Shown: positions 1,320 through 47,800 of the stretch, piece after piece
How the letters are laid out: every line of letters starts with the position of its first letter
Position numbering within the stretch: position 1 is the first letter of the stretch
Origin: a virus
Taxonomy: Duplodnaviria; Heunggongvirae; Uroviricota; Caudoviricetes
IMG/VR virus record: IMGVR_UViG_2563366820_000002
Span: 1-47,800 of that record
Direction: 5' to 3' (one strand)
Length of the DNA: 47,800 nt
Program-made: the position numbers and the translations under genes
The notes under the pieces: model-generated
What the model saw: only the letters and a program-made list of their open reading frames with translations
Told to the model about the DNA's origin: nothing
The model's database searches: none

Positions 1320-1425
1320 CGTTGAAGCCTGCTTTTTTATACTAAGTTGGCATTATAAAAAAGCATTGCTTATCAATTTGTTGCAACGAACAGGTCACTA
1401 TCAGTCAAAATAAAATCATTATTTG
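1320..1425. other. attL (bacterial arm, 15-bp core 1331-1345, phage P' arm with Int arm-type sites)
   Basis: tgaagcctGCTTTTTTATACTAAgttggcattataaaaaagcattgcttatcaatttgttgcaacgaacaggtcactatcagtcaaaataaaatcatt matches the lambda attP core and P' arm as I recall them. Confidence 0.9.
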
Positions 1426-2489
1426 ATTTCAATTTTGTCCCACTCCCTGCCTCTGTCATCACGATACTGTGATGCCATGGTGTCCGACTTATGCCCGAGA
1501 AGATGTTGAGCAAACTTATCGCTTATCTGCTTCTCATAGAGTCTTGCAGACAAACTGCGCAACTCGTGAAAGGTAGGCGGATCCCCTTCGAAGGAAAGAC
1601 CTGATGCTTTTCGTGCGCGCATAAAATACCTTGATACTGTGCCGGATGAAAGCGGTTCACGACGAGTAGATGCAATTATGGTTTCTCCGCCAAGAATCTC
1701 TTTGCATTTATCAAGTGTTTCCTTCATTGATATCCCGAGGGCATCAACATGCAATGCTGTTGGGATGGCAATTTTTACGCCTGTTTTGCTTTGCTCGACA
1801 TAAAGATATCCATCTACGATATCAGACCACTTCATTTCGCATAAATCACCAACTCGCTGCCCGGTAACAACAGCCAGTTCCATTGCAAGTCTTAGCCAAC
1901 ATGGTGATGATTCTGCTGCTTGATAAATTTTCAGGTATTCGTCAGCCGTAAGTCTTGATCTCCTTACCTCTGATTTTGCTGCGCGAGTGGCAGCGACAGG
2001 GTTTGTTGTTATATGGCCTTCAGCTATTGCCTCTCGGAATGCATCGCTCAGTGTTGATCTGATTAACTTGGCTGACGCCGCCTTGCCCTCGTCTATGTAT
2101 CCATTGAGCATTGCCGCAATTTCTTTTGTGGTGATGTCTTCAAGTGGAGCATCAGGCAGACCCCTCCTTATTGCTTTAATTTTGCTCATGTAATTTATGA
2201 GTGTCTTCTGCTTGATTCCTCTGCTGGCCAGGATTTTTTCGTAGCGATCAAGCCATGAATGTAACGTAACGGAATTATCACTGTTGATTCTCGCTGTCAG
2301 AGGCTTGTGTTTGTGTCCTGAAAATAACTCAATGTTGGCCTGTATAGCTTCAGTGATTGCTATCCTCCTGTCTCGGCCTAATCCAAACTCTTTACCCGTC
2401 CTTGGGTCCCTGTAGCAGTAATATCCATTGTTTCTTATATAAAGGTTAGGGGGTAAATCCCGGCGCTCATGACTTCGCCTTCTTCCCAT
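1419..2489 (-). CDS. int: Integrase (tyrosine recombinase), lambda Int
   Basis: 356-aa translation matches lambda Int as I recall it (MGRRRSHERRDLPPNLYIRNNGYYCYRDPRTGKEFGLG...); ATG at 2489. Confidence 0.95.
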   Translation of the reverse strand: MGRRRSHERRDLPPNLYIRNNGYYCYRDPRTGKEFGLGRDRRIAITEAIQANIELFSGHKHKPLTARINSDNSVTLHSWLDRYEKILASRGIKQKTLINYMSKIKAIRRGLPDAPLEDITTKEIAAMLNGYIDEGKAASAKLIRSTLSDAFREAIAEGHITTNPVAATRAAKSEVRRSRLTADEYLKIYQAAESSPCWLRLAMELAVVTGQRVGDLCEMKWSDIVDGYLYVEQSKTGVKIAIPTALHVDALGISMKETLDKCKEILGGETIIASTRREPLSSGTVSRYFMRARKASGLSFEGDPPTFHELRSLSARLYEKQISDKFAQHLLGHKSDTMASQYRDDRGREWDKIEIK

Positions 2490-2685
2490 TTCTGATCCTC
2501 TTCAAAAGGCTACCTGTTACTGGTCGATTTAAGTCAACCTTTACCGCTGATTCGTGGAACAGATACTCTCTTCCATCCTTAACCGGAGGAGGGAATATCC
2601 TGCATTCGCGCACCCATCGACGAACTGTTTCAAGGCTTCTTGGGCGTCGCTGGCGAGCGTTCCACTCCTGAAGTGTCAAGTACAT
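2467..2685 (-). CDS. xis: Excisionase, lambda Xis
   Basis: 72-aa product MYLTLQEWNARQRRPRSLETVRRWVRE... from the internal ATG at 2685 (track ORF extends to 2724); overlaps int; GGAG RBS. Confidence 0.9.
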   Translation of the reverse strand: MYLTLQEWNARQRRPRSLETVRRWVRECRIFPPPVKDGREYLFHESAVKVDLNRPVTGSLLKRIRNGKKAKS

Positions 2686-2710
2686 CGCAAAGTCTCCGCA
2701 ATTACACGCA

Positions 2711-2733
2711 AGAAAAAGCCGCATTGATGCGGC
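2711..2733 (-). terminator. Intrinsic terminator upstream of xis (leftward operon)
   Basis: Hairpin GCCGCA-TTGA-TGCGGC followed on the minus strand by TTTTTCTT. Confidence 0.5.
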
Positions 2734-2789
2734 GATGGTAGGTCTGGATATCTTGAGAAATGAACAGGCCTCATCGAGTGTGAGGCGGG

Positions 2790-3134
2790 TTAGTCCTTGC
2801 GTAGCTCGATGATTCTTCTGTAAGTCTCTGGTGCTTTGTTCCCGTACGTCTTCATTTCAGACTTCAACAGAGCAACGAGTGAATCCCATTCGTTGAGGAT
2901 TCCTTTGAATGCCGGAACGCGCTTTGCAACCTTGTCGAATGAATCTCTGATTTCTGGAATCTGCTCAACAAGTGCAACGCATCGTCGGAAGTCTGCTACG
3001 TCATGTGGAGCGCCGAAGTGATGACCATAGATATTCTTTTTCAGTCCACATGCGATTGAGGCAAGAGTTGCGCTACTGATGCCAACATCGCCAGTCGATT
3101 GCCATTTCAAAACCTTCATAGCCAAATCTGACAT
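2790..3134 (-). CDS. Hypothetical early protein, 114 aa
   Basis: ATG at 3134 with GGAG RBS; no family recognised. Confidence 0.6.
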   Translation of the reverse strand: MSDLAMKVLKWQSTGDVGISSATLASIACGLKKNIYGHHFGAPHDVADFRRCVALVEQIPEIRDSFDKVAKRVPAFKGILNEWDSLVALLKSEMKTYGNKAPETYRRIIELRKD

Positions 3135-3206
3135 TTCTTGTCTCCATAAAACAAAACCCGCCGTAGCGAGTTCAGATAAAAGAAATCCCCGCGAGTGCGA
3201 GGATTG

Positions 3207-3491
3207 TTATTCATTGCCGATATTCACCTTTATCGCGAACACCTTTACCGGTTTATCGCCGAAGTGCGGATGTGTGATTGTCTTGATTTCATATCCGTCA
3301 TACGGGACGTCAATTCTTCGGCTGGAATCGTCGCGCTTCGGATATCCCTTTGTGATAATCAGGCGGTCATACTCCCGGAACATAATTCGCTTATTCCAGT
3401 AGTCATTACACAGGCGATACTCTTCCGTTTTCTCGCCTGACTTCATCTGGTCGAAATATTCACCGTTAACTGCCAGTTGAAGGTTAGCCAC
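3207..3491 (-). CDS. ASCH/PUA-like (DUF3850-type) protein, 94 aa
   Basis: GTG start at 3491 with strong AAGGAGG RBS, overlapping the stop of the upstream gene; composition resembles DUF3850 proteins. Confidence 0.6.
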   Translation of the reverse strand: MANLQLAVNGEYFDQMKSGEKTEEYRLCNDYWNKRIMFREYDRLIITKGYPKRDDSSRRIDVPYDGYEIKTITHPHFGDKPVKVFAIKVNIGNE

Positions 3492-3969
3492 GGTTAACCT
3501 CCTTCGGCGGTTCTGGTAGCGGCATCCAGTGGGTTACATTGCGGCTCTGCGTTTCGAAGAACTCCTCACCATTGCGGACGACATCAAAAAATTCACCGTC
3601 TCGATATTGCGCATAAAGAACGAATGCGCCATCACATAAAATAATTACGTGCTGACCATCATCAGGCATTCGCTCACTACAGCTTATCCAACCATCCGGA
3701 GTTACCGGCACTGGCTGGGCGGTGTAAAGTGGAACAACTCGCCCTCCCCATTGCTTAACACTACTCTCAGCGAACACTAAATGCTCAGTCCGATAATACC
3801 CAGGGGCATCAATATCTTTTCTTTCGCTATCCCACATGTAAACCACCGGTTCTGCTTCCAGTGATGCCAGTGCAATTCGTGCCAGTTCCATTTGTTCGCC
3901 ACGAGTAAGTCCGTTTTCAAGCGGATTTTTAATGAACAATTCAATACGTTCTTTGGTAATAGAATTCAT
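3484..3969 (-). CDS. DUF551-type phage protein, 161 aa
   Basis: C-terminal ...THWMPLPEPPK signature of DUF551; N-terminal module shared with ORF 4164-4613. Confidence 0.7.
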   Translation of the reverse strand: MNSITKERIELFIKNPLENGLTRGEQMELARIALASLEAEPVVYMWDSERKDIDAPGYYRTEHLVFAESSVKQWGGRVVPLYTAQPVPVTPDGWISCSERMPDDGQHVIILCDGAFVLYAQYRDGEFFDVVRNGEEFFETQSRNVTHWMPLPEPPKEVNRG

Positions 3970-3970
3970 G

Positions 3971-4162
3971 CTATTTCACCTTAATCTCAACATTTCGCAG
4001 CTTTAGCTCTACTGGCAGGTCTGACTTTCCGGTTAATGCCAATGCGAGATTTTCTGGAGTAATGAGAGCAGTTATTGTTTTCCCCCTCGCCAGACGAATA
4101 ATCATTCGTATATCGCAATCGTCACATACTCCCGGTCGAACAATTGATATTTGTCCATTCAT
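3971..4162 (-). CDS. Hypothetical small protein, 63 aa
   Basis: ATG at 4162 with AAGGAG RBS; the track start at 4183 is a TTG. Confidence 0.5.
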   Translation of the reverse strand: MNGQISIVRPGVCDDCDIRMIIRLARGKTITALITPENLALALTGKSDLPVELKLRNVEIKVK

Positions 4163-4163
4163 C

Positions 4164-4613
4164 TCACGCTCCTTTGATGCCAATGTTTACAGCCTGGCAA
4201 GCCTCTTTGAGCACCCAGTCAACAGCGTCTTTCCATGCTCCGGTTTCGACTGGCGGATTTTCACGCTTAACCTGTTCATAGAAGCGCACTGCTTTAACCA
4301 GTCCTTCTGATGTCACCGGGACTGGCGGGGCAGTGAATAAGGCCTGAATCTCATAGCTCGGCCTGTCGTTGCAATCCTCTTTTGTCGGTACATATTTCCA
4401 GTCACCAACCCACGAATCCCCCTGAGAGTCCGTAACACCTTTTTTCACGTAGCGATATCGCCACGCGACTGGCTCTGCTTCCAACGATGCCAGCGCGATA
4501 CGAAACACATCAGCAAGCAGACTGTTTGATGATTGGTTATCGTGCGCCGGGTCGCTCAGGAAGCCAGTGATGAATGATTTAATCTCCGCGCTTTCTCTGG
4601 TAATGGTGGTCAT
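4164..4613 (-). CDS. Hypothetical early protein, 150 aa, N-terminal module paralogous to 3484-3969
   Basis: ATG at 4613 (MTTITRES...); shares the ...RIALASLEAEPV... block with the DUF551 protein but has a different C-terminus. Confidence 0.65.
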   Translation of the reverse strand: MTTITRESAEIKSFITGFLSDPAHDNQSSNSLLADVFRIALASLEAEPVAWRYRYVKKGVTDSQGDSWVGDWKYVPTKEDCNDRPSYEIQALFTAPPVPVTSEGLVKAVRFYEQVKRENPPVETGAWKDAVDWVLKEACQAVNIGIKGA

Positions 4614-4699
4614 TTCAGTTTTCCTTATATGGATTAATTTTATTGTGCAGTGCGTTGAACGACGCCCATGCCACGTCGTTATACAATTCAATAACTGGT

Positions 4700-5026
4700 T
4701 CAATTATTTTTCCGATTATCCAGACAAAAATTAGCGGGGATATCGGTGTCATCAACACGATAAACAGAATGAGAAACAGAAATTCTACTACTCTGTTTTT
4801 TCGCGGATATTCTTTTCTGAATAATGTAGGCACACCACTCTCCTTTAGTGCGCAAGTGGTTTTTCCAGCGGTTTTGCGCTGCGCTGGGCTTATCTTTGAT
4901 TCCCTCTCTGGCAATTCCAGAATATAAGTACAACACCATACGGCGATTGCTAACTATCAACCACTGGCTGGGATAGCAACGGCTGTATACACGGGAAATA
5001 AGCATCTTTGCTTTACGGTTTTTCAT
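4700..5026 (-). CDS. Hypothetical protein, 108 aa (uncertain)
   Basis: ATG at 5026 with AGGAGA RBS and ATGA overlap with a 31-codon Arg-rich ORF upstream; low-complexity basic sequence, could be non-coding. Confidence 0.3.
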   Translation of the reverse strand: MKNRKAKMLISRVYSRCYPSQWLIVSNRRMVLYLYSGIAREGIKDKPSAAQNRWKNHLRTKGEWCAYIIQKRISAKKQSSRISVSHSVYRVDDTDIPANFCLDNRKNN

Positions 5027-5198
5027 CGTTTTGCTCTCCTGCGTCTCTTTGCTGCTCGTCGCGCCGCTGCAATACCGGTATGGCGGCGCTTTGGTGCCGG
5101 GATGATGTTGTCAGCCATCAGGACATGTGGCTTTGTAATTAGCGCAGAAGCCCAAAAACGAGTCTGGTACGGTAACAAGCCGATACATGCCACATGCA

Positions 5199-5726
5199 CT
5201 ACTCACCTCCTTTGATGCGAATGCCAGCGGCGCGCGGCACATTAACTTCCACGATGCGCACTGTTGGTTTGTACATCTCAATCGCTGTCAGCCAGTCAGC
5301 GCCGGTCATGCGCTTTTCTGCATCGCCATTAGTCCACTTAACCGGCACACCAATAGCCTTCATCGCGATTTCTATTTCCCCGGCAATGGCGCTTTTTCCG
5401 CAACCAGTAAAACCAGATACAACGACAAGAACTTCGCCTTTGGCTGGTTTTATTTCCCGTGCTTCCAGTTCTGCAATGCGCTTTTTTGCTGCTTCCAGTT
5501 CATCCAGTAATTCCAGTACGGTAGCCGGATTAGCCTTGGCAACAAAATCCCGGACTGGCTTACAATCAATCTCCGCAATGGGTTGATACGATGTGTAGCC
5601 ATGCTGTCTTGTATAACTACCGTGACGAATAACAAAAAAATCACCATTTATTTTTTTAGCCTGCCACTTATCTTCACCGGCTTTCTCTGCCGCTTCACGC
5701 AGTGCCTGATAATCAATCTTGCTCAC
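5199..5726 (-). CDS. Early protein with coiled-coil segment and Walker-A-like GFTGCGKS motif (possibly ead/Ea22-like)
   Basis: GTG start at 5726 with AAGGAGG RBS; 175 aa. Confidence 0.6.
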   Translation of the reverse strand: MSKIDYQALREAAEKAGEDKWQAKKINGDFFVIRHGSYTRQHGYTSYQPIAEIDCKPVRDFVAKANPATVLELLDELEAAKKRIAELEAREIKPAKGEVLVVVSGFTGCGKSAIAGEIEIAMKAIGVPVKWTNGDAEKRMTGADWLTAIEMYKPTVRIVEVNVPRAAGIRIKGGE

Positions 5727-5886
5727 TGGTTGCCTCCTTTACGCTACATCGCATTCAGATATTTGTTTTGATTCACTGACGGAAAAGAATTTCTCTTTAG
5801 CAATTCCTCTCTCGATGGCATTGGCTTTACGCGCTGGCGAATAATCATTTCTGCCGGAAGAATGCCGGGATTGTATGCAAGTCCTC

Positions 5887-6195
5887 TCATGATTTACTCT
5901 CCACGAACTGGTCAATAGCCATGCTAAGTGACACACCTAAAGTCTCGATATGTTGCTGAATATCCTGTAGCGTCTGCGCCTGAGATAACAGGATTTCACG
6001 GTTGCATAATTCTTTAACCAGATGCTCAAACTTGCTGTAATAACCGATACGGCTTAGTGTTTCTTTCCCTGCATTCTCGCCTTCTTTGATAATTCCTCTT
6101 TCGCTAAGAATCAGATCGTGTTTGGTTCCGGTAATAACGTATTTTCCGAGGTCGATGTTTAGCTTCATTGTTTTCATTGTTAATTCCTCAGTCAT
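5887..6195 (-). CDS. Hypothetical protein, 103 aa
   Basis: ATG at 6195 ([11 protein letters not shown]...) with AGGA RBS; the track ORF extends upstream without a credible start. Confidence 0.55.
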
Positions 6196-6484
6196 TACTG
6201 ATAGCGCCATAGCGTGAGCGGTAATTACGCAGGCGCGGGTCGATATATTCAGGGAAGTGGGTATATGTGGCTTTGCGGAATGGTCGGATTGATGTCTGGT
6301 AAATTCGCTCGCGTTCTTCTTTCTCTGCAAGCCATATACAGTGGCGAAATTCCTTTTCCTCTTTCGTTTCCTGCGGTAGAGACATTATTCGATCGTAGTT
6401 TTTTCTGAATTTATCCAGCACCTCCGATACGGAATTGCCGGAACAGCGGCGCGGGTCATCCGCACCATACAGAGGCGCTGGCAT
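6188..6484 (-). CDS. Hypothetical protein, 98 aa
   Basis: ATG at 6484 with AGGAG RBS. Confidence 0.6.
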   Translation of the reverse strand: MPAPLYGADDPRRCSGNSVSEVLDKFRKNYDRIMSLPQETKEEKEFRHCIWLAEKEERERIYQTSIRPFRKATYTHFPEYIDPRLRNYRSRYGAISND

Positions 6485-6497
6485 GATTTTCTCCTGA

Positions 6498-7004
6498 TTA
6501 AATTGCGTGAATAGCGTGACGAGGGAAGGGGAGAGTTACTGGTGCAAAGGGTATATCGTCGTCAAAATCCATCGGAGGTTCGTTGTGTTGTGCTGGTGAT
6601 GATTGCTGCTGTGGCTTCTGTGATTGCCTGCTGGCTGCTTGTTGTTTGCTGTCGCCAATGCCGCCAAGCATTTGCATCACGCCATTAATTCCGACATGAA
6701 CCTCGGTTGTGTAACGGTCTTGCCCTGACTGGTCTTTCCACTTTCTGGTTCTCAGCATTCCCTCGAAATAAATCTGATCACCTTTTTTCACATACTGCCC
6801 CACGACCTCAGCCAGTTTCCCGGATACAGCAACACGATGCCATTCAGTCAATTCCTTTTGCTCGCCAGTATTTTTATCTCGCCATTGTTCTGACGTGGCT
6901 ATTGTCAGGTTAGCGAACGCTGTTCCTGATGGTGAGTATCGAACTTCCGGGTCTTGTCCTACCCGACCAAGGATAATCACCTTATTTACGCCTCTGCTTG
7001 CCAT
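6498..7004 (-). CDS. ssb: Single-stranded DNA-binding protein with a 15-residue C-terminal extension
   Basis: OB-fold N-terminus [27 protein letters not shown]... and acidic tip ...MDFDDDIPF, followed by [15 protein letters not shown] before the stop. Confidence 0.9.
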
Positions 7005-7712
7005 TTATGCCGCCTGTTTTAGTTCGTTAACTCTGATGTTCATTACCTGAACGCATTTAGCCTGCGCCTCCTCGTTGCCAGCCATTAATTGCCAGTCACG
7101 CTGATAACGCTCGATGAGTTTTTTCTTGTCAGTTTCTGTTGACGCATAATCGCTGAAGTCTTTCAGGATTTGTTCGCAGTCAACCGATGGAGATTTCTGG
7201 TTGGTATTTTCTGGTGATGGTTTGTTATCTGATGCTGGGATTGCCCATCCCGGCAGCGATGGAGGGAGCCAGTAAAATCCTGTTCCATCCTTCAGTTTTG
7301 CCCTGTGCCACCCCTGCTTTTTATCGAGAGATGTTTGTGCGAAACCTTCCTCAAGGTTATACAGATACCGACCGATTCCCCACTGAACGGCAGCACGCTT
7401 CATTGCACCTGAACGACCACCTTTGACGGCTTCTACCTGCGTGTTTTCAGCAGCATCCCATTTGGTTACCCATTCGGAATCAATCTTGATTGATATGCCG
7501 CATTCAACTCCGCCGTTGTTGGGAATATCGCGGTATTCATTGCGCCATCCTGCTTTGCCGCAAACATCGTCCAGGCGTTTCATGATTGCCCGGTTCGTGA
7601 CATAAGCCAGCACCATAGCCCACACTTTTCCATCGCGTGTTTTACCGCTTTGCTGTATTCGCCATTCGATATCTTCAGGGCTGAATGGCTCATCGAATTT
7701 ATTCAAATCCAT
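7005..7712 (-). CDS. Single-strand annealing protein (Rad52/Sak-like recombinase)
   Basis: 235 aa, ATG at 7712 with GAGGTG RBS; sits directly upstream of ssb in the slot lambda uses for bet/exo. Confidence 0.6.
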   Translation of the reverse strand: MDLNKFDEPFSPEDIEWRIQQSGKTRDGKVWAMVLAYVTNRAIMKRLDDVCGKAGWRNEYRDIPNNGGVECGISIKIDSEWVTKWDAAENTQVEAVKGGRSGAMKRAAVQWGIGRYLYNLEEGFAQTSLDKKQGWHRAKLKDGTGFYWLPPSLPGWAIPASDNKPSPENTNQKSPSVDCEQILKDFSDYASTETDKKKLIERYQRDWQLMAGNEEAQAKCVQVMNIRVNELKQAA

Positions 7713-7811: not shown

Positions 7812-7970
7812 TTATGGCGATACCAGAGAGCTTTCTGCGTGTACATGCGTCTCTGTAACTTGCTCTCCTTCACTGTGGTTGCAAGTGACATGAATATCTC
7901 CTTCGTTACCGATTAATTCTTTCATCTGACGAATGAATTCTTCGTCTGACCAGTTATCTGTAAAACTCAT
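7812..7970 (-). CDS. Small acidic protein, 52 aa, in the slot lambda uses for gam
   Basis: ATG at 7970 overlaps the kil-like stop (ATGA); MSFTDNWSDEEFIRQMKELIGNEGDIHVTCNHSEGEQVTETHVHAESSLVSP. Confidence 0.45.
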   Translation of the reverse strand: MSFTDNWSDEEFIRQMKELIGNEGDIHVTCNHSEGEQVTETHVHAESSLVSP

Positions 7971-8119
7971 TTCCTGCGATACCACGGAAGGTTGATAGCT
8001 GATTTCATCGCTTTATTTGCTTCAAGCCACATTTTTGAATCACCAATAAATCTGGCTATTACTGCTTTGTTCTGTGCAGCACGAAGCATCTGGTGATTGA
8101 TGGCTATTTCATTGCGCAT
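7967..8119 (-). CDS. Kil-like small protein, 50 aa
   Basis: ATG at 8119 with GAGG RBS, overlapping cIII; position immediately downstream of cIII as in lambda, and an FIGD-K-M-EA block that I associate with lambda Kil. Confidence 0.5.
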   Translation of the reverse strand: MRNEIAINHQMLRAAQNKAVIARFIGDSKMWLEANKAMKSAINLPWYRRK

Positions 8120-8258: not shown

Positions 8259-9227
8259 TTAGTAGGTTATTTTTGTTGCGAATACTTCGCCTTTTACGAT
8301 GGCTGTTATGATATTTTTAGCAACATCTTCTGATGCGCCAACCTTGATAAGGTCAGCAAGTATTTTGTTATTTACTTCTTTCCGGTGAGCTTTATCCTTT
8401 GCTCTACGCTCTTCTTCGTCCTTGATTCTTTTTTCTTCTGCTATTCTGGCTTGCTCTTTTGCTTCAGCCTCGCGCCGGATTCGTTCAGCCTCCTCCTGTG
8501 CTTTTCGGCGTTCTGCTTCAATTGCCGCATGCTTTTCTCTTTCAGCTCGTTCTGCTGCCTCTTTTGCTTCGCGCTGTGCTCGTTGCTCGGCTTCAATGCG
8601 TTCACGCTCTGCACGTTCCGCTGCGGCCTTAGCTTCTGCTTCTCGCCTTGCTGCTGCTTCAATTTCGGCTTTTGCCTTTGCTTCGGCTTCTGCTCTGGCT
8701 TTCTCTTCAGCTTCTCTTTTTAAGCGTTCTTCATGCTCTCGCTTTTCCTGCTCCGCTTTGAGTCTTGCCTCTTCTCTTTGGCGGTCAAATTCGCGATCCA
8801 TCAAAATCGCTATTTCATGGTCAGACTCAATTTGCTTTGCGAGAGCTTCAGCTGCTGCCTTAGCTTCTTCTTCGGCTTTAATCCGCGCCTGTTCTTCCTC
8901 ATAATCAGTAAGAGGCTGGCGCGCCTTGGCTTTCAGTTCATCAAGGCGATCACGCACTGTCTTGCGGTTGGCATCAATTAGCTTTGGAATTTCCTTCAGT
9001 TCAGCAACAAGGTCTTTGCCAAGACCATCGAGATATGTTTTCGTCTGCGCAACTTTATACGCCAGAGAAGCGATCTCCTTTCTGCCCTTTGCCGTTGTGA
9101 TATCAGGCACAAAGGACATAACTTCACGTTCAACCTTTTGAAGGATTTCTTCAATCTGGTCGGCAGACTGAAATACAGTCATTGCATTTGCTTTTTCAAT
9201 AACAACTAAATCTGTTACTTCACTCAT
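8259..9227 (-). CDS. Hypothetical protein with long Glu/Ala/Lys/Arg-rich predicted coiled-coil, 322 aa
   Basis: ATG at 9227 with AAGGAGG RBS; globular N- and C-terminal parts flank ~130 residues of EAKAKAE/RREAE repeats. Confidence 0.75.
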   Translation of the reverse strand: MSEVTDLVVIEKANAMTVFQSADQIEEILQKVEREVMSFVPDITTAKGRKEIASLAYKVAQTKTYLDGLGKDLVAELKEIPKLIDANRKTVRDRLDELKAKARQPLTDYEEEQARIKAEEEAKAAAEALAKQIESDHEIAILMDREFDRQREEARLKAEQEKREHEERLKREAEEKARAEAEAKAKAEIEAAARREAEAKAAAERAERERIEAEQRAQREAKEAAERAEREKHAAIEAERRKAQEEAERIRREAEAKEQARIAEEKRIKDEEERRAKDKAHRKEVNNKILADLIKVGASEDVAKNIITAIVKGEVFATKITY

Positions 9228-9261
9228 ATATCCTCCTTCGTTGTATTCTTTAAAAACGCTC

Positions 9262-9630: not shown

Positions 9631-9646
9631 CTATTCATATCCTCAT

Positions 9647-39515: not shown

Positions 39516-39537
39516 TTAAATCTTTTTATAAAAACCA

Positions 39538-39562: not shown

Positions 39563-39575
39563 TAATGGAGAGTAG

Positions 39576-40391
39576 ATGGGCATAATCGATTTAAACACAG
39601 CAGACATATTCAATGCTATCGGTGGTGGCTCTCCGCTTTCGATCATCGACAGCGTTCTGCATCCTCAGTATGTGATTCGTGACAGGGAAACTGGCGAGGT
39701 TGCTCTTGAGTTCAGTGGTATGGCATCCGTACAGCCAAGTGGAAGGGCGCAAATAACAAACGCCCCGGTGGAGAAAGGGAAATACCAGTCCATCAACAAA
39801 GTTAAAGAACCCGCCAGAGTAAGATGTGCAATCATCGTAAATGGTCTTACTGGTTTTTCCGGCAATATCCCGAATATTTTCGATCTCACATTCACAAGCC
39901 AGAACAGCACGCTGAACACAATCAAAACGATGCTGTCCTCTGCAAAAACATACGATATTGAAACGCCAAAGGAAACTCTGGAGAGTTTCGACCTTGTTGA
40001 CCACTATTACGAAGTTAACTCTCAAAAGGGGGTGACTCTTCTGACGGTTTATCTTGATTTTCAGGAGGTCATTCAGCAAATGGAGGTTATCCTCTCTGGA
40101 TCTCAGTCAGAACAGAAGCCAACGGATAACAATAAGTCACAGGGAGATGTAGGAGTTGATCCGCAAATAACCAATGGCGGAGCCAGGGAATCTACTGTCG
40201 ATGAGCTAAGTAAATCATGGTCATCACTGAAGTCATCTGTTGGAGAAATCACTGGAAAAATCTCCGACACAATCAAGACTGAATTCCAGAGTGCTCTTGA
40301 TACGGTATCCAAACCAATACTCGAAGTCACAAACAGCGCAACAAAAAAAGCGGCAGATATTGCAAAAAATATAGTTAAGGCGAGTACATGA
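39576..40391 (+). CDS. Baseplate-associated protein, 271 aa
   Basis: First gene after the island; GGAG RBS. Confidence 0.5.
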   Translation: MGIIDLNTADIFNAIGGGSPLSIIDSVLHPQYVIRDRETGEVALEFSGMASVQPSGRAQITNAPVEKGKYQSINKVKEPARVRCAIIVNGLTGFSGNIPNIFDLTFTSQNSTLNTIKTMLSSAKTYDIETPKETLESFDLVDHYYEVNSQKGVTLLTVYLDFQEVIQQMEVILSGSQSEQKPTDNNKSQGDVGVDPQITNGGARESTVDELSKSWSSLKSSVGEITGKISDTIKTEFQSALDTVSKPILEVTNSATKKAADIAKNIVKAST

Positions 40392-40690
40392 TTACAGTAT
40401 CTGTTCTTCCCAGCAAATCTCAGTCCATTTCGGTAAGTCTGGCTGGTCAGCAATGTAATATAAAACTTGTTCAGCGACAGAGTTTTATGTACATGGATTT
40501 AACTGTTAATGGAGTCCCAATTATGCAGGGCGTTCCATGTCTGCATGGGAATAAGATGGTAAGATATTCCTACCTTGGATTTAAGGGAGACCTTATTTTC
40601 ATTGATAATGATGGGGAATCGGACCCGCGATGGGAAGGCTTGGGTAGCCGTTACTTGCTGTATTACATCGAGGAAAACGAGCTTGTATAA
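40388..40690 (+). CDS. Baseplate-associated small protein, 100 aa
   Basis: ATG overlapping the upstream stop. Confidence 0.5.
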   Translation: MITVSVLPSKSQSISVSLAGQQCNIKLVQRQSFMYMDLTVNGVPIMQGVPCLHGNKMVRYSYLGFKGDLIFIDNDGESDPRWEGLGSRYLLYYIEENELV

Positions 40691-41564
40691 AAATCACAGT
40701 CTTCGGTTTGACTTCACGAATGAATCATCAGCATTTGATAAAAATGGAAACAATAAAATCTCCATCAGAAATGTTAAGTCAACAGTATCCCTGAACTTTG
40801 TTACCGGTCGGGGAGGTGCTCAGGCTGATATATCTCTTTACGGGTTAGGAATCGAAAGACTTGCTGATATATCAGGGAAGGCTGATGGTATTGTTGGGGA
40901 AGGTCAGAAGTTAAATGTTGAGGTATTTGCTGATGATTCTCTTGTTTTCTCCGGCACGATGCTTTCATCAATAGCAAACATGAATTCTGCTCCTGAAAGC
41001 AGTCTGATGATAACAGCCTCTTCTAATGTTGATTTACAGAACATGCCAGCAAGCCCGTTTACAGCGCAGGGGGCGCAAAGTGTTGAAGATGTCATCTCAT
41101 CCATTTGTGCAAGTGCAGGTTATGAAGCTGTGTTTAATAATGTAAAAGGGATGACAACATCAGGAAGTCCGCATTTTGAAGGAAGTGTTTTTGAGCAACT
41201 TTATAGGGTCTGTTCAGATTATGGACTGGCGATGTCAGCTACGCCACCGACAAAAGTAGAGTTCTGGCCTTCAGAAAAAAACAGAGACGATGTAATTCCG
41301 TTTATATCCAGAGAATACGGACTTGTTGGATATCCTGTATTTTCAAATGGGGGACTGATGTTTCAGACGCAATATTCATCTCTCCTTTGCATTGGAAGAT
41401 ATGTGGATATCAAAACAGAACTACCACATGCAAGCGGAAGGTATAAGTTAACCTCCGTTCGGCATGAATTATCATCATGGATGCCAAATGGTTCATGGCA
41501 CTCAATATGTATTGCCGCCAGAACAGCGGAACAAAGAACAGAGGCGCAACAGAATAATGGATAA
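40683..41564 (+). CDS. Baseplate hub-like protein
   Basis: Track ORF 40575-41564 overlaps the upstream gene; a TTG at 40683 with GAGGAA RBS is the most plausible start (alternative ATG at 40608). Confidence 0.45.
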   Translation: MYKNHSLRFDFTNESSAFDKNGNNKISIRNVKSTVSLNFVTGRGGAQADISLYGLGIERLADISGKADGIVGEGQKLNVEVFADDSLVFSGTMLSSIANMNSAPESSLMITASSNVDLQNMPASPFTAQGAQSVEDVISSICASAGYEAVFNNVKGMTTSGSPHFEGSVFEQLYRVCSDYGLAMSATPPTKVEFWPSEKNRDDVIPFISREYGLVGYPVFSNGGLMFQTQYSSLLCIGRYVDIKTELPHASGRYKLTSVRHELSSWMPNGSWHSICIAARTAEQRTEAQQNNG

Positions 41565-42249
41565 GCAACTATTTACTCCAACGCCTGCTCAGGTAAGTGA
41601 GGCTCAATCTCAGGAATATATTTTTGAGATGCTGATGTCTGGATATTTCTTCATTGAGTTAGCGAGAGTTAAGGAAGTCAGGGGTGAGGCACCAGATTTA
41701 GTTGTTGATGCTCTTCCTTTGCTTACCAGAACAGACCGTACAGGAAAAATGATTTCTAACTCGGTTTTATATGATCTCCCCGTATGGCGGTTGCAGAGAG
41801 GAAACAGCGCTATAATTATGGACCCTGTGGCGGGTGATATTGGTCTGATTGCGGTATGCGACAAAGACACATCACTGGTAAGAAAAAATCGTAAAGAATC
41901 AGTACCTGGAAGCAAAAGGCGACACAGTAAATCTGATGCAATTTATCTTGGTGGGGTATTAAATATTGCACCTACTCAATTCATTGAATTTGCTGATGGT
42001 GCAATAAACATAACCACGCCTAATCCACTAAATATTAAATGTTCATCGTTAAATATTGATGCTCCTGATGGAGTCAACATGAATACTCCTTTACTTAAAG
42101 TAAGCGGTGATATTCAGGATAACGCAAGTTCACAGTCATCTACTGTTAAAAATTTAAGGGTCAACTATAACAATCACAAACATCCTGTTTCAGGTGTACA
42201 AAGTGGTGGGGCAACAATAAATTCCAATGCAACGGATAAACCGACATGA
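41557..42249 (+). CDS. Baseplate spike/assembly protein V-like
   Basis: ATG at 41557 (MDKQLFTPTPAQV...) overlapping the upstream stop. Confidence 0.5.
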   Translation: MDKQLFTPTPAQVSEAQSQEYIFEMLMSGYFFIELARVKEVRGEAPDLVVDALPLLTRTDRTGKMISNSVLYDLPVWRLQRGNSAIIMDPVAGDIGLIAVCDKDTSLVRKNRKESVPGSKRRHSKSDAIYLGGVLNIAPTQFIEFADGAINITTPNPLNIKCSSLNIDAPDGVNMNTPLLKVSGDIQDNASSQSSTVKNLRVNYNNHKHPVSGVQSGGATINSNATDKPT

Positions 42250-42605
42250 CATACAGAACTATGCAACTGGACACATCTACGTGGGACTTGACGCTTGACG
42301 GAAATGGCAATCTGGCGATCGCAGAAGAATCATATTCTGTTGCTCAGGATGTCGCCAGTGCATGCCTGGTGTTTTCAGGAGAGTGTTATTACGACAATAC
42401 ACTTGGGATCCCATGGAAGACAGAAGTTCTTGGCAGGCGACCATCTCCTGGTTTTATTGCTCAGAAAATGCAGGCTGAAGCACTCAAATTACCCGTTGTT
42501 GAGGATGCTCTGGCATCAGTTTTCTTTGACAAGAATACACGCACAACTCGCGGCACAATCCGCGTTACAGATATCAATGGTAATATTGCACAGGCCACCT
42601 TATGA
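42246..42605 (+). CDS. Baseplate wedge protein (gpW/gp25-like)
   Basis: 119 aa immediately upstream of the J-like gene; ATGA overlap. Confidence 0.5.
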   Translation: MTYRTMQLDTSTWDLTLDGNGNLAIAEESYSVAQDVASACLVFSGECYYDNTLGIPWKTEVLGRRPSPGFIAQKMQAEALKLPVVEDALASVFFDKNTRTTRGTIRVTDINGNIAQATL

Positions 42606-43831
42606 CGATATTAAATACGGCTGTTCCTGATGTAACCATCACTGAAAACGGTCTTTCAGTTCCCGACATAGCGGATGTTCTGGCGGGAAGACTTACAGAC
42701 ATGTCAACGGCTCTTGGTGGTGGTGCAAGTCAATCACTGAGTTCACCGCAAGGGCAGATCGCACAGTCTGATACTGAAATTATCGCTCAGGAATACGACA
42801 AGCTTCTTTGTTTGTTTAATCAAATTAATCCTGACTTTTCAACTGGCAGATTCCAGGACGGGATTGGCCGGATTTACTTTATGGAACGGATCGCTGCACA
42901 GGGGACCGTTGTTACAGCGACATGCATTGGTCAGGTTGGAACCACCATACCTGCGGGTAGTACTGCTGTTGATGCGAGTGGATATATATATCAGTCAATT
43001 GACAATGCCGTAATACCCTCATCAGGCTCTGTTGATGTGCAGTTTGTCAACACAACAACCGGGCCAATTCCGTGTGCAGCCGGCTCCCTGAATCAGATTT
43101 ATCGAGCCGTTTCCGGATGGGATGCTGTAAATAATATTAGCCCTGGGGTCGTTGGTGTTGATGTTGAATCACGGATCGCCTTTGAAACTCGCCGGAGGCA
43201 ATCAGTTGCCAGAAACAGCAGAAATCAGGATGCGTCTACATTAGCTGCGTTACTTGCGACAGATGGTGTGCTTGATGCTTACGTATGGTCAAACAGAACT
43301 GCAGAAACAGTAAATAAAGGAACAACGAATTTCCCGATTCTTGCGCATTCTGTTTATATTTGTGTTTATGGCGGGGCTGATACTGATGTTGCTGAGTCAA
43401 TATTCAATACTTATAACCCCGGCGCCAATATGAATGGTGATACAACGTTCACTGTTTACGATAACGTTAATTACATGCCGCCATATCCATCTTACGTAAT
43501 GCAATGGCAAAAGGCATCACCTACGCGGGTTTACTTTAAGGTAAATGTCGATGCTTCACTAAATCCCCCAAGTGATATTACTAAACAAGTAAAGGAAATG
43601 ATTGTCACTGTGTTCAATGGAGGGTATGAGGGTATTGGAAAGGCACGAATTGGTTCTACTATAAATGCTGGTAAATACTATGCCCCTGTTATTTCAATAT
43701 CTCCTGATACAGTTGGCATTTTGTCTCTTGAAGTTTCTCTCGATGGTTCACTATACGGACCTGCTGTAACTATGGGCATAGACCAGGTTCCAACTATTCA
43801 GGAATCAGATATCATTGTTACATTATCGTAG
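42602..43831 (+). CDS. Baseplate J-like protein
   Basis: 409 aa in the baseplate cluster. Confidence 0.65.
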   Translation: MTILNTAVPDVTITENGLSVPDIADVLAGRLTDMSTALGGGASQSLSSPQGQIAQSDTEIIAQEYDKLLCLFNQINPDFSTGRFQDGIGRIYFMERIAAQGTVVTATCIGQVGTTIPAGSTAVDASGYIYQSIDNAVIPSSGSVDVQFVNTTTGPIPCAAGSLNQIYRAVSGWDAVNNISPGVVGVDVESRIAFETRRRQSVARNSRNQDASTLAALLATDGVLDAYVWSNRTAETVNKGTTNFPILAHSVYICVYGGADTDVAESIFNTYNPGANMNGDTTFTVYDNVNYMPPYPSYVMQWQKASPTRVYFKVNVDASLNPPSDITKQVKEMIVTVFNGGYEGIGKARIGSTINAGKYYAPVISISPDTVGILSLEVSLDGSLYGPAVTMGIDQVPTIQESDIIVTLS

Positions 43832-43841
43832 GGGGAGCTGT

Positions 43842-44480
43842 ATGTGGGAAGACACAATTCTTACCCAATACTCGGCAAGTAAAAAATTATTGTCCATCAT
43901 AGACACATTTAACCAGGCAGTGAGCCTTGATGATTTCACTGAGGAATTCATTAAAAAGGTATGGGATTTAACTACCTGCGAAACATTCGGGCTTGATATG
44001 TGGGGGGGAATTGTTGGCATAAGCAGATATATTGTTGCGCCAATAGATAGCGATTCATTTGGATTTAGCGAAGCAGATGATGGGAGTACTGATTACCCGG
44101 CACCATTTAATAATTCTCCGTTTTACGGCGGCATTCAGGAAACAACGAATGTCAGGCTTGGGGATGATGCTTACAGAACATTAATACTCTGCAAGGCTTT
44201 TACTAACATCAGTGTGGCAACCATTCCTGATATAAATAAATTTCTAAAAATACTTTTTTATCAAAGAGGGAGAGCATATTGCGTAAATTATCGAGATATG
44301 ACAATAGGAATAACGTTTGAATTTGAGCTTGCGCCATACGAAGAATCTATTCTCACGAATTATGAGGTAATGCCCGTTCCGAGTGGTGTTCTGGTAAATA
44401 TACGTAAAATCATTAGCCCTTATTTTGGTTTTGCATCTGATGCCTATCCGTTTAATGATGGCACATTTTATAGGAATTAA
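43842..44480 (+). CDS. Baseplate/tail protein I-like
   Basis: ATG at 43842 with GGGGGAG RBS. Confidence 0.5.
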   Translation: MWEDTILTQYSASKKLLSIIDTFNQAVSLDDFTEEFIKKVWDLTTCETFGLDMWGGIVGISRYIVAPIDSDSFGFSEADDGSTDYPAPFNNSPFYGGIQETTNVRLGDDAYRTLILCKAFTNISVATIPDINKFLKILFYQRGRAYCVNYRDMTIGITFEFELAPYEESILTNYEVMPVPSGVLVNIRKIISPYFGFASDAYPFNDGTFYRN

Positions 44481-44482
44481 GC

Positions 44483-45382
44483 ATGAATCGTTCTGACTCA
44501 CCTAAAAAACAACCCAAGCCATTTGGGGTTAATGGACAGAGAGGGGCAATATTGCCAACCACCCCTGCAGGAGATAACTCAGCATCGTATGAACAGGGGT
44601 TTCCTCCAATAACAATGATCCTGAAATCTGCTGGCGGTTTGCCACCAAAAGGCCAGGATATGAACCAAATTTTATACGAACTTTCTGCTCTGGGTAGATG
44701 GTCGAGCACCGGGGCGCTGAATACTTTTGATTCTGAATTTGCTTCGGAGATTTCTGGATATCCGTCAGGGGCGATGCTCATCTCGAACGATGGGGAAAGA
44801 ATATTCATTAACACAACAGAAGGAAATCTATCTGATCCAAACAGCAATGGTGCCGGGTGGAAAGATGTTTTTTCATACCTTGGTTTAGGAGAAGCGGCGA
44901 AAAGGGATGTGGGCACGACAGTCGGAACCGTTGCCGCTGGTGATGATTTACGCATAACAGGAGCACTTCAAAAGGCAAATAATCTTTATGAGTTAACAAA
45001 TAAATCTGACGCAAGAGCTAATCTTGGGTTAGGAACCGTTGCAACAAAAAACGTGGGAAATAGTGCTGGGCAAATACCTGATATGTCTTACTGGTCTTCA
45101 CCGGCAGGCGGAATTAATTTCCCGAATGGGTTCCAGATGCGATTCGGGACTATCGCTGGTAATGGTGGAAAATTATTTTCTACGCCATTTACAAACCAGT
45201 GCTATGGAATTGTTTTCGGACAAACATATGCATCCAACTATTGGATATTCAGCCCAATGTACAGAGCGTCAGACCTCAGTAAAACAGGTTTTGCTTTTAT
45301 AAATAAGGCATGGTCTGGCGTTCCAGGGACAGCATCCCAGGATGCTGGTGAATCTGTTTTTTATCTTGCAGTAGGGTATTAA
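44483..45382 (+). CDS. Tail fibre protein
   Basis: 299 aa, Gly/Ser/Thr/Asn-rich, immediately upstream of a tail fibre assembly gene. Confidence 0.6.
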   Translation: MNRSDSPKKQPKPFGVNGQRGAILPTTPAGDNSASYEQGFPPITMILKSAGGLPPKGQDMNQILYELSALGRWSSTGALNTFDSEFASEISGYPSGAMLISNDGERIFINTTEGNLSDPNSNGAGWKDVFSYLGLGEAAKRDVGTTVGTVAAGDDLRITGALQKANNLYELTNKSDARANLGLGTVATKNVGNSAGQIPDMSYWSSPAGGINFPNGFQMRFGTIAGNGGKLFSTPFTNQCYGIVFGQTYASNYWIFSPMYRASDLSKTGFAFINKAWSGVPGTASQDAGESVFYLAVGY

Positions 45383-45383
45383 T

Positions 45384-45815
45384 ATGGAAATGGTTTATAG
45401 CGCCTCAAATAATAGTTTTTTCGCTAAAAATGATGTGGCGAAATATGAACAGGACGGATGGGAACTTGCTGATATTGTCGAAGTGACATATGACACTTAC
45501 CTGGAATTTATTGAAGACAGAACGTTGCAAGGGAAAGTACGCATCGCGGGTGATGATGGACATCCTGCCTGGGGGGATATGCCTCCACCGACACACGACG
45601 AACTTATTGCTGCCGCTGAACAAATTCGCCAGCAACTGCTGGCACATGCGGACGAAACTATGCTCGACTGGCGAACAGAACTGATGCTCGGTGAAATCAA
45701 CGACACCAACAAGGAGAAACTGTCGGCGTGGTTGGCATTTAAAAATGACGTTAAATCTATCAATGTCTCAACCGATCCAGAGCATGTGATATGGCCAACC
45801 TTTCCAGATGAATAG
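45384..45815 (+). CDS. Tail fibre assembly protein (Tfa chaperone)
   Basis: 143 aa following the fibre gene; Tfa-like sequence. Confidence 0.8.
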   Translation: MEMVYSASNNSFFAKNDVAKYEQDGWELADIVEVTYDTYLEFIEDRTLQGKVRIAGDDGHPAWGDMPPPTHDELIAAAEQIRQQLLAHADETMLDWRTELMLGEINDTNKEKLSAWLAFKNDVKSINVSTDPEHVIWPTFPDE

Positions 45816-45973
45816 CTAAATCAGGTTTGTCAAAAATACAATCATGCGATTGATATATGCACTAGGCAGTGGATGAATTATCCACTGCTATGGCCTCCTC
45901 AATAATGATTCTGCCGCAGGTATATTTATATTCAATGACAACGCAAATACTGTATAGTATACTTTTGTAAAGT

Positions 45974-46993
45974 ATGCAACATTCATTAGCAATGAAAAAC
46001 TGCGCAGGTAGTCATGAAATGAGAAAAATAAGTAATGTAATTTTTGATAGAGATCACACCATTGAACTAAAAGGCGTTGCTATTCTCCTTGTCATGCTTG
46101 GGCATGTAAATGTAATCCCGCACGCCGGGGCATATGGTGTTGCTCTATTCCTTATGCTGTCAGGCTTTGGCCTTGTGCAATCTTACATTAAATCAGGGTT
46201 GGATTCTTTTTTTTCAAAAAGGCTATCAAAAGTACTTGTTCCATACGCTATTATAACCATTGTTTGGATTATTGCTTTTGGACATCCAGCAATTACAAAT
46301 GATGACTTTTATCATTTAGCGATTACCATACTAGGCATTGATTTGAATGCCACTATAGATCCTAGTATGTGGTATATATCTTTTATAATAATATGGTATC
46401 TGGCTTTTTTTCTAATTTTTAGCGCTAATATCTCTATTAATATTAAAATAGCCTTCCTTTTCCTTTTTTCTGTATTGCTTTACAAAAACGCAGATATATT
46501 CCCTCCTCCAGCAGGTGCCGGACTATACGTTGCTGCATTTCCACTAGGTTCACTAATTGGAGTGGTGTATGAAAAAGTCAAAGGATATGCAATAGATAAA
46601 TGGATATTACTTTTGTTTGTCATAGTTTCTTTGGTGTCCTTAATTTTATCCCTTTATTTTTATAAAGGGATTGATGTTAGTTTTTTTGACTATGCAGCAA
46701 CAAATATAGCAAGCGCATTTCTTATAATTGGAATTACATCGATTCTTAGAGTTGCAAATATAAACATAACACCATTGAAATTTGTTGGCATACTATCTTA
46801 CGAGATGTATCTTATAGAATTCATGTTTTTGATGAAAGCATACCATTTATTATCGTTTATAAGTTCAGATGGGATAAAATCCGTCTTGTTTGTTGTAATT
46901 GTTTGTATTTTTGCATACGTATATAAATACGTACTTTCAATAGTTTTTAAAGCGCTCAGGAAGGCATTACCAAACTCAAAAATATATACTTAG
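45974..46993 (+). CDS. Acyltransferase-3 family integral membrane protein (putative surface-polysaccharide O-acetylase)
   Basis: Multi-pass hydrophobic protein with N-terminal ...RDHTIELKGVAILLVMLGH... motif; start among ATGs at 45974/45992/46019 uncertain. Confidence 0.75.
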   Translation: MQHSLAMKNCAGSHEMRKISNVIFDRDHTIELKGVAILLVMLGHVNVIPHAGAYGVALFLMLSGFGLVQSYIKSGLDSFFSKRLSKVLVPYAIITIVWIIAFGHPAITNDDFYHLAITILGIDLNATIDPSMWYISFIIIWYLAFFLIFSANISINIKIAFLFLFSVLLYKNADIFPPPAGAGLYVAAFPLGSLIGVVYEKVKGYAIDKWILLLFVIVSLVSLILSLYFYKGIDVSFFDYAATNIASAFLIIGITSILRVANINITPLKFVGILSYEMYLIEFMFLMKAYHLLSFISSDGIKSVLFVVIVCIFAYVYKYVLSIVFKALRKALPNSKIYT

Positions 46994-47371
46994 GTAGATC
47001 TATATATAGATAATGTCTACATACGGAGCAGGCTATCGTTGGATATTATGCTGGTAGCCTGTATCAATTCTACAACTCTACATGGCGAACTATCCTTAGC
47101 CAGGGATGTCATACGCATAGCGGATTATTCAAACACATCCTTAAGCACTCATGGCAGACCTTCTTTATCATCTTGTACTTGCACTGTTTCATGAATTTCA
47201 TTCATAGGAATTAACTTAACCTTTGCACCCAGAATGATTAGGAGGACACGTTTTGTTAGCTCATTAAAACCTAAGGTTTTTTCTGGTAAACCTGCAAAGG
47301 GTCTCATGATATAGACCGGTTCAGCAAAGATTCTTATCCTATTCCTTTGCTGATTTGATATAGAGCATTTA

Positions 47372-47391
47372 TACTGTGATTTTATCCAGTA
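47372..47391 (+). promoter_or_regulatory. SOS (LexA) box upstream of the UmuD'-like gene
   Basis: TACTGTGATTTTATCCAGTA: left half-site matches CTGT, right half-site CCAG deviates by one base from ACAG. Confidence 0.55.
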
Positions 47392-47410
47392 TTGATGACT
47401 GAGGTGCATC

Positions 47411-47800
47411 ATGGGATTCCCGAGTCCGGCTGCAGACTACGTTGAGCAACGCATATCGCTCGACGAGACGTTAATCAGCAAACCATCGGCAACGTACTTC
47501 ATGCGGTCAGGGAAAACGTACTGGCGAGAAGGCATCATGTACGGTGCTTTGCTCGTCGTTGACAGTTCACTGATGCCGTTTGATGGCTCGTTGCTGATTT
47601 GTTCAGTTGACAATGAGTTCAGAGTGAAGCGATACAAGCGCTCCCCTAAACCACATCTGATTAATCTTGAGACTGGAGCGGTAGAGGTGATACCAAAGCC
47701 GACCAGCCTGTTTGATGATGAGTCGCATTTTTTTGGGGTGATTACGTACATCATCAATGATGCGCGTTCCGGTGAGTTTGATGATTGCTCTGTGATGTAG
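47411..47800 (+). CDS. UmuD'-like protein (pre-truncated UmuD homologue, HumD-like)
   Basis: Begins MGFPSPAADYVEQRI, aligning to UmuD from the Cys24-Gly25 cleavage site onward; GAGGTG RBS; stop at the window end. Confidence 0.8.
   Translation: MGFPSPAADYVEQRISLDETLISKPSATYFMRSGKTYWREGIMYGALLVVDSSLMPFDGSLLICSVDNEFRVKRYKRSPKPHLINLETGAVEVIPKPTSLFDDESHFFGVITYIINDARSGEFDDCSVM

Follow-up and report, generated by a model that had tools for sequence, protein, structure and literature searches.

The 47,800 nucleotides of IMG/VR virus record IMGVR_UViG_2563366820_000002 (positions 1 to 47,800, the whole of which is called the window here) raise the question of how integration, regulation and lysis genes close to those of phage lambda come to be followed by the head, tail and baseplate genes of a contractile-tailed phage. 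The original prediction, made from the sequence alone, took the two parts for one mosaic prophage. Our analysis makes it very probable that a 46,785-bp stretch beginning at position 1331 is a single, apparently complete temperate lambdoid prophage, seated in the Escherichia coli lambda attB site between ybhC and ybhB and produced by modular recombination.

One element between ybhC and ybhB

The left flank of the lambda attB site is occupied by the 5′ part of host ybhC (1-1284, minus strand), named from the PGAP label that the matching DNA bears in many E. coli genomes and with a guanine-plus-cytosine (GC) content of 53 % against 45.5 % for the prophage. Directly after it lies the attL core GCTTTTTTATACTAA (1331-1345, plus strand), with the lambda P′ arm following to about 1420, and it is at this core that a 98.4 % blastn alignment to lambda positions 27724-29126 begins. 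The right junction was found by extending the sequence on its source scaffold, which was reached through an exact protein match to the last ORF. This scaffold, KB733122.1 (GCA_000352685.1), shares its first 6,390 bases exactly with the tail of the window and carries an attR core, aCTTTTTTATACTAA, 301-315 bp past the window end (scaffold positions 6691-6705), preceded by a P arm and followed by the bacterial B′ sequence CTTGAGCGAAACGGG and then ybhB and bioABFCD. The window is therefore truncated, as had been noted, but only by the final 315 non-coding bases of the element; no gene is missing, and the cargo at the attR side, which had been presumed to lie out of sight, is already inside the window.

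Besides attL, the window holds no second att core in a search allowing up to two mismatches. Pfam scans of all open reading frames (ORFs) found one integrase in total and no integrase or recombinase domain between Rz and terS; for these scans adjacent ORFs were joined by Gly/Ser linkers and matches mapped back by coordinates, and the E-values given throughout refer to the concatenated chunks. The gaps among the ORFs at 20.25-22.0 kb are too short for a hidden recombinase. No tRNA genes were found in the window, so there is no tRNA insertion site. By the original prediction, a separate adjacent prophage would have betrayed itself through a further att site or integrase in the stretch from Rz to the terminase; neither is present, and with one att core and one integrase tandem prophages are therefore rejected. 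Like the sequence identities and domain content described below, the junctions and the status as a single element are read directly from the DNA.

What the element joins is visible from its alignment to lambda. Blastn of the whole window matches 7,567 lambda bases, 16 % of the element, in the segments 1331-2733 (98.4 %; att, int and xis), 9243-9813 and 10304-10629 (96 %; ea10 and ral), 12947-13311 (85 %; the end of cII and start of O), 15080-15612 (96.6 %; ninB), 15616-15782 (a ninE fragment) and 16174-20076 (94.4 %; ninF through Q, pR′, S and R to mid-Rz). The virion module has no lambda match: none of its genes resembles lambda Nu1/A to J, and a DUF3383 sheath, an E217_Gp32 tube and a Baseplate_J protein are all significant, in agreement with the claim that these genes are not the siphovirus set of lambda.

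Related prophages in other, complete E. coli genomes likewise unite a lambdoid early region with this late module in one genome, keeping the late module in place and exchanging much of the rest. In strain SC406 (LR778140.1) the prophage is bounded by ybhC and ybhB, with an attR core just before ybhB, a tyrosine recombinase at the ybhC end and a single int; in WS4437A-1 the same late module stands beside a different integrase, IntS, near purK. Relative to these two, the late module is 91-99 % conserved over 22475-36568 and 39537-44690, whereas the TerS N-terminus, an island at 36.6-39.5 kb, the distal fibre with its cargo and most of the early region have been exchanged. The DNA of the sheath and tube genes occurs in 20 of 5,426 complete E. 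coli genomes, and for every late gene other genomes supply a counterpart of full length with 90-100 % identity.

Could the window instead hold two neighbours, a lambda-like remnant running from int to Rz and a separate myovirus prophage or tailocin-like cluster running from terS to the fibre? At the DNA level the early and late halves do resemble different sets of phages, and terminator-like hairpins and a reverse ORF lie in the 2-kb gap between the halves. We nevertheless consider such a pair very improbable. One att core and one integrase serve the whole, and attL and attR with lambda arms bracket all 46.8 kb; the late half has no replication, immC immunity or lysis genes of its own, just as the early half has no virion genes; its full set of head genes means that it is not a tailocin; and the same combination forms single packaged genomes in phages Edno5 and PA-1, which also bears out the claim of one mosaic prophage. 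An artificial junction between the halves is conceivable in that the source is a draft assembly scaffold, yet it is even harder to credit, since independent complete genomes show the same order of lysis genes, accessory ORFs and terS within the same ybhC and ybhB bracketing, and the late module runs gap-free into host ybhB-bioA.

Several observations weigh against a complete and functional prophage. At its first base, and there only, the attR core departs from that of attL, with A in place of G, and the attR P arm is only 84.8 % identical to that of lambda although Int and Xis are 98-99 % identical; together these could lower excision efficiency, and from their sequences the P arm and the recombinase appear to have separate histories. 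The prophage and all E. coli members of its kind are known from sequence alone, with induction and particles inferred, and none of the isolated coliphages in the phage collection has the late module, the best sheath match there being 75 % at the amino acid level (Edwardsiella) and the best major capsid protein match 70 % (Klebsiella). Two terminator-like hairpins and one minus-strand ORF separate lysis from terS. Headful packaging is suggested by the Terminase_6 family of TerL, the terminase family being its sole basis. A rival reading keeps the architecture as described but takes the prophage for a defective (cryptic) one that has lost excision or the ability to form infectious particles; the att differences, the want of any isolate of the E. 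coli lineage in the phage collection and the rarity of that lineage lend it some weight. We think it rather unlikely. From int to humD no ORF is truncated and neither an insertion sequence nor a frameshift was seen, the att core keeps an intact 7-bp overlap region, and the late module is 96-99 % identical among genomes in which the integrase, immunity, replication module and insertion site that go with it differ, which implies recent horizontal movement as a phage.

Lambda-derived and exchanged early genes

The single prophage described above carries integration, late-control and lysis genes of lambda type. The integrase (1419-2489, minus strand; Pfam Phage_integrase and Arm-DNA-bind_1) is 99 % identical in amino acid sequence to lambda Int, and the excisionase (2467-2685, minus strand; Pfam Exc) 98 % identical to Xis. 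The nin region and Q (15154-18380, plus strand) comprise NinB, a NinE fragment, NinX, NinF, NinG, NinH, the NinI phosphatase and Q, with amino acid identities to lambda of 98 % for NinB, 89 % for NinF, 91 % for NinG, 97 % for NinH, 96 % for NinI and 100 % for Q. The late promoter pR′ (TTGACT-17-TAAATT; 18423-18451, plus strand) has the hexamers of lambda, lies inside the 94.4 % alignment and is the sole sigma-70-like site in a promoter scan of 18.3-22.4 kb. It is followed by the lysis cassette (19048-20265, plus strand), in which S and R are each 99 % identical to their lambda counterparts, Rz is 56 % identical and the embedded Rz1 (20027-20212) is unlike lambda Rz1. The close match to lambda first noticed for Int, Xis, attL, the Nin proteins and phosphatase, Q, pR′, S and R is thereby confirmed.

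The immunity region has another origin. Positions 10600-12760 are 98.9 % identical at the DNA level to HK620, HK630, HK140 and mEpX2, and the immunity type can therefore be named as that of HK620. The N antiterminator (10613-10912, minus strand) is of the HK620 type and resembles lambda N in its C-terminal third only. Two nut sites are read directly from the sequence, nutL (11030-11075, minus strand) with boxA GCTCTTTAAC and boxB TCCCGCCGAAATGCGGGA, and nutR (12690-12738, plus strand) with boxA CGCTCTTTAAC and the same boxB; the boxA common to both is (C)GCTCTTTAAC, and the boxB is unlike that of lambda. The operators have the form AATACC-N4-GTATT, which matches nine times against 0.65 expected, and every match lies in OL (11109-11193) or OR (12418-12457). 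Between these stands the CI repressor (11666-12382, minus strand; HTH_3 and Peptidase_S24), 43 % identical to lambda CI, and beyond OR come Cro (12483-12683, plus strand), which belongs to the lambda-Cro fold family and is 63 % identical to its lambda counterpart, and CII (12792-13085, plus strand), 69 % identical. That N, boxB, the operators and CI/Cro belong to an immunity type other than lambda's had been proposed, and it can now be specified.

Downstream of cI, where lambda has rex, an hkaS-like membrane ORF is found (11280-11669, minus strand), and a second membrane ORF of 149 amino acids (9825-10274, minus strand) lies between ea10 and ral within 9262-10534 (minus strand), where Ea10 and Ral are 98 % and 100 % identical to lambda. 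Both are small multi-pass membrane ORFs in classic exclusion-gene positions, after cI and in the ea10-ral gap; their PHROG matches are of unknown function only, and neither has a PADLOC match.

The genes for recombination and replication are likewise not those of lambda. In place of exo/bet/gam the minus strand encodes a Rad52/Rad22-family single-strand annealing protein (7005-7712; Pfam Rad52_Rad22, E 5.7e-24) and a phage SSB (6498-7004; Pfam SSB, E 4.8e-35), as the original prediction had it, and next to them also a P22-type anti-RecBCD protein, Abc2 (6188-6484; Pfam Anti-RecBCD_p2, E 3.5e-60). An O-like initiator (13118-13963, plus strand) contains three 24-bp iterons at 13495-13566 as the origin, and the position of lambda P is filled by a DnaC/IstB-like AAA+ helicase loader (13948-14811, plus strand; Pfam IstB_IS21, E 1.1e-17, and Bac_DnaA) that shows no similarity to lambda P in a protein comparison with lambda. 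A DnaC-like loader had been predicted here and fits these matches.

The remaining early-left genes are mostly accessory. Kil is present at 7967-8119 (minus strand; Pfam Lambda_Kil) and, with the annealing protein, SSB and Abc2, makes up an early-left operon resembling that of P22, and the minus-strand genes at 2790-6177, which include DUF551 and Ead/Ea22-like members and otherwise match PHROGs of unknown function, have no lambda match. Also in the pL operon, at 8259-9227 (minus strand), is a 322-amino-acid ORF with a long coiled-coil segment rich in Glu, Ala, Lys and Arg; it matches unknown-function PHROGs only, and its homologues bear the PGAP label 'cell envelope biogenesis protein TolA'. 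Five ORFs in the window (4700-5026, 5023-5199, 5739-5936, 18409-18630 and 47149-47412) were set aside as probably non-coding, as they have no family match and either overlap better candidates or are intergenic.

The interval between lysis and terminase contains post-lysis accessory ORFs at 20253-22001 that are shared with P22-like phages such as Sf6, namely a T5orf172/MUG113 ORF, a DUF2560 ORF, a 63-amino-acid ORF and a DUF6953 ORF, the last on the minus strand. The T5orf172/MUG113 (GIY-YIG-like) domain lies in the C-terminal half of ORF 20253-20951 (plus strand), directly after Rz, and the true start of this ORF is probably an internal ATG near 20463. The two terminator-like hairpins are at 20295-20315 and 21724-21744. 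As these and the minus-strand ORF stand before terS, late read-through depends on Q.

By homology to lambda, HK620 and P22, CI bound at OL and OR would keep the lysogenic state. Its cleavage motifs are present (QAG, GDSM and FKK), and with the Ala-Gly, Ser and Lys motifs intact the repressor should be RecA-inducible. Either RecA-stimulated cleavage of CI or expression of an antirepressor from the tail-operon island could then derepress pL and pR, whereupon N acting on HK620-type nut sites may antiterminate both transcripts, and O with the DnaC-like loader may start replication at the iterons, again judging from homologues. Q acting at the lambda pR′ would yield a single extended late transcript that takes in the lysis genes, the accessory ORFs and the virion operon of about 23 kb, past the hairpins at 20295 and 21724, and Int with Xis would excise the genome through the lambda-type arms. 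The resulting particles would be short-tailed myoviruses like those of Edno5. We infer that the prophage can be induced, what form its particles would take, that packaging is by the headful and what the island does.

Virion genes, tail-operon island and cargo

From 22255 to 45815 every gene is on the plus strand save within the island (36025-37480). The operon opens with TerS (Terminase_2) and TerL (Terminase_6N/6C) at 22255-24316, followed by head genes at 24316-29478 for a portal (Phage_portal_3/DUF1073), a Mu-F-like protein, a DUF2213 protease/scaffold, a cement protein of the family of E217 gp24, Pam3 gp6 and XM1 gp53, and a major capsid protein with sequence matches to PDB entries 9b40 and 8frs (E 1e-25). 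Head-tail connector genes, including DUF4054 and a neck terminator, occupy 29482-31697. The tail sheath (31694-33184; Pfam DUF3383, E 2.5e-106) matches solved sheaths in the PDB by phmmer, among them E217 gp31 (8env/8fvg) and 9b42, with E-values of about 7e-17 to 1e-18. The tail tube (33196-33630) has no PDB sequence match and is assigned from the Pfam E217_Gp32 family and synteny. Two tail chaperones and a tape measure with a lytic-transglycosylase region, identified from tape-measure PHROGs, lie at 33630-36024. Beyond the island come the baseplate genes at 39576-44480, encoding a Pam3 gp18-like plug, a hub, a spike, a sheath initiator (a 119-amino-acid product, PF10934), Baseplate_J and a DUF2612 wedge, and then a tail fibre with its assembly chaperone (Caudo_TAP) at 44483-45815. 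NCBIfam gave no names for the major capsid protein, tube, baseplate proteins or the acyltransferase described below, and the 329-amino-acid hub ORF had a weak sub-threshold match only. From these sequence matches the virion module, rightly described in the original prediction as one with a contractile tail, can be placed in the E217/PB1-Pam3-XM1 contractile-tail structural class.

Between tape measure and baseplate the operon is interrupted by an immI-like regulatory island (36025-39515). Its divergently transcribed regulator is a repressor of 286 amino acids with helix-turn-helix (HTH) and S24 domains (36620-37480, minus strand), rather than Mnt as in P22 immI; it keeps the Ser and Lys motifs and has QAR where CI and LexA have QAG. 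On the other side stand a ribbon-helix-helix-like ORF of 57 amino acids (37578-37751), which has no Pfam or NCBIfam match, a P22-type Ant (37770-38702; Bro-N and P22_AR_C, E 8e-29), whose gene region is 96 % identical in DNA to that of the P22-like phage Kapi1, and a second antirepressor (38736-39515; phrog_1726). The island also contains a secreted 152-amino-acid ORF on the minus strand that is 99 % conserved in one related E. coli prophage and has no PHROG or PADLOC match. No operator-like inverted repeats were found in the divergent promoter region of the island. PADLOC, run on ten accessory ORFs, reported no defence system and only generic HTH matches to the island repressor. The content of this slot varies among relatives, with a P63C-domain gene in one related prophage (L001), Arc and P22AR in another (L002) and Arc and Ant in Edno5. 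By analogy with P22 immI, the island may act as a second control point on CI, with a presumed Ala-Arg cleavage site in its repressor.

Two cargo genes precede attR, and no complete E. coli genome gave a megablast match to window positions 45.8-47.8 kb. The first is a membrane acyltransferase gene (Acyl_transf_3; 46019-46993, plus strand) that is AT-rich, its GC content being 32.6 % where the prophage has 45.5 %. Megablast found no counterpart of it in the 5,426 complete E. coli genomes, and neither NCBIfam nor PADLOC gave a match. Pantoea phage PA-1 carries a non-homologous acyltransferase at the same position, between fibre and int, and oac of Sf6 sits at the corresponding position. The acyltransferase is likely to be lysogenic-conversion cargo, and by analogy it may plausibly modify the O antigen. 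The gene nearest attR encodes a HumD-family analogue of UmuD′ of the phage P1 type (47411-47800, plus strand), which matches the NCBIfam equivalog NF051876.1 over its full length of 1-129 at 212.8 bits against a cut-off of 120. The protein begins, with MGFPSPAADYVEQRI, where the product of UmuD cleavage begins, and SGKTY replaces the catalytic Ser motif, which in UmuD is SGDSM. In L001 an S24 gene 65 % identical to it is found in the same place.

It is tempting, though doubtful, to see in this prophage the first representative of an E. coli lambdoid myovirus lineage that combines lambda Int/Xis/att, Q/pR′ and S/R with a Gofduovirus/E217-class particle and a second lysogeny switch within the tail operon, made up of an HTH-S24 repressor with an Ala-Arg site and two antirepressors. 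Were this so, the second switch would provide an induction route independent of, or tuned differently from, CI cleavage, and an inducible prophage would let a contractile-tail temperate phage be studied in a genetic system compatible with lambda. The practical interest is otherwise modest and lies in the likely conversion cargo, namely the acyltransferase and the HumD translesion-synthesis subunit, and in an island repressor with an unusual presumed cleavage site.

Relation to known phages

The late half has no isolated close relative among 50,697 phage records searched by megablast, in which the best match was 69.6 % over 3.2 kb to Vibrio phage IKEMa6-1, together with matches to the ant gene; Edno5 and GF-2 gave no megablast match to it. 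At the protein level the nearest isolates differ by part, with TerL closest to Pantoea PA-1 (80 %), the major capsid protein to Klebsiella phages (69-70 %) and sheath, tube and baseplate to Edno5/GF-2 (60-78 %). With terminase, head and tail each nearest to different phages, three sub-lineages are thus combined in the late region, which is a mosaic in its own right. The temperate Klebsiella phages with the closest major capsid protein, RCIP0114, ST899-OXA48phi17.1 and ST15-VIM1phi2.1, have a sheath that is only 37 % identical. Homologous sheath, tube, cement protein, capsid, plug, baseplate J and wedge are also found in E217/PB1-like phages, cyanophage Pam3 and Vibrio phage XM1, at low identity; E217 and the PB1-like phages are virulent.

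Lambda itself shares with the prophage the insertion site, the gene order, att/int/xis, ea10, ral, ninB, ninF-G-H-I, Q, pR′, S and R, and differs from it in immunity, N/nut, the recombination genes, the helicase loader, half of Rz, Rz1 and the whole virion module, with its Nu1/A cos terminase and siphovirus tail. With only 16 % of the element aligned, where the genus asks for about 70 % nucleotide identity or more over the whole genome, and with no homologues of Nu1/A, E, V, H or J, the prophage falls outside the genus Lambdavirus. It belongs to the lambdoid group by its lambda-like gene order, by 7.6 kb at 85-98 % identity to lambda and by 98.9 % identity to HK620 in the immunity region. HK620 and HK630 have the same N-nutL-OL-hkaS-cI-OR-cro-nutR arrangement and differ in their virions, which are those of a podovirus and a siphovirus, respectively. 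Sf6 and other P22-like phages match piecewise over 3.1-21.7 kb, amounting to 36 % of the first 24 kb and ending just before terS, where the genomes of those phages end, and the podovirus virion module of Sf6 is unlike that of the E. coli prophage.

The closest plan is that of the temperate Edwardsiella phage Edno5, which with GF-2 makes up the lambdoid myoviruses of the genus Gofduovirus considered here. This phage has terS-terL-portal-MuF-DUF2213-major capsid protein, sheath-tube-chaperones-tape measure, an Arc/Ant island, baseplate J and a fibre in the same order, and after the virion operon carries int, recombination genes, cIII, cI, cro, cII, O, P, NinG, Q and lysis genes. Amino acid identity is 75 % for the sheath, 72 % for the tube and 60-78 % for most tail and baseplate proteins, and 28-78 % for late genes overall. 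The head proteins are more distant, at 30-50 % (major capsid protein 38 %), and the terminase is unrelated at E 1e-4. Early genes differ, with RecT/exo and P in Edno5 as against Rad52/SSB/Abc2 and the DnaC-like loader in the E. coli prophage, as do Int/att, immunity, Q, lysis and host genus, and early-gene protein matches are mostly absent. The architecture is thus that of the genus Gofduovirus (Edno5/GF-2), while nucleotide similarity falls short of the genus level. Edno5 is spontaneously induced and forms a myovirus with a tail of roughly 75 nm by transmission electron microscopy, and it has lambda-like cI/cro/cII together with an additional lysis/lysogeny region (PMC6372524); a recent proteome-clustering study counts GF-2 among the lambdoid phages and gives it as a myovirus (PMC12541379). 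PA-1 likewise joins N, cI, cro, cII, O, NinB/F/G and lysis genes to a related virion type, with virion proteins other than TerL 24-54 % identical.

Because Edno5/GF-2 and PA-1 share this plan, the combination of a lambdoid early region with a contractile tail is already known, and the mosaicism of the prophage is ordinary for a lambdoid phage. Its particular feature is the E. coli lineage, which is rare and has no cultured representative. The gain is incremental, because the main point that the prophage illustrates is already established for lambdoid phages (PMC12541379): lambdoid module exchange crosses tail morphotypes, such that the int/att, Q and lysis cassettes of lambda, a siphovirus, serve a myovirus of the kind seen in Edno5.

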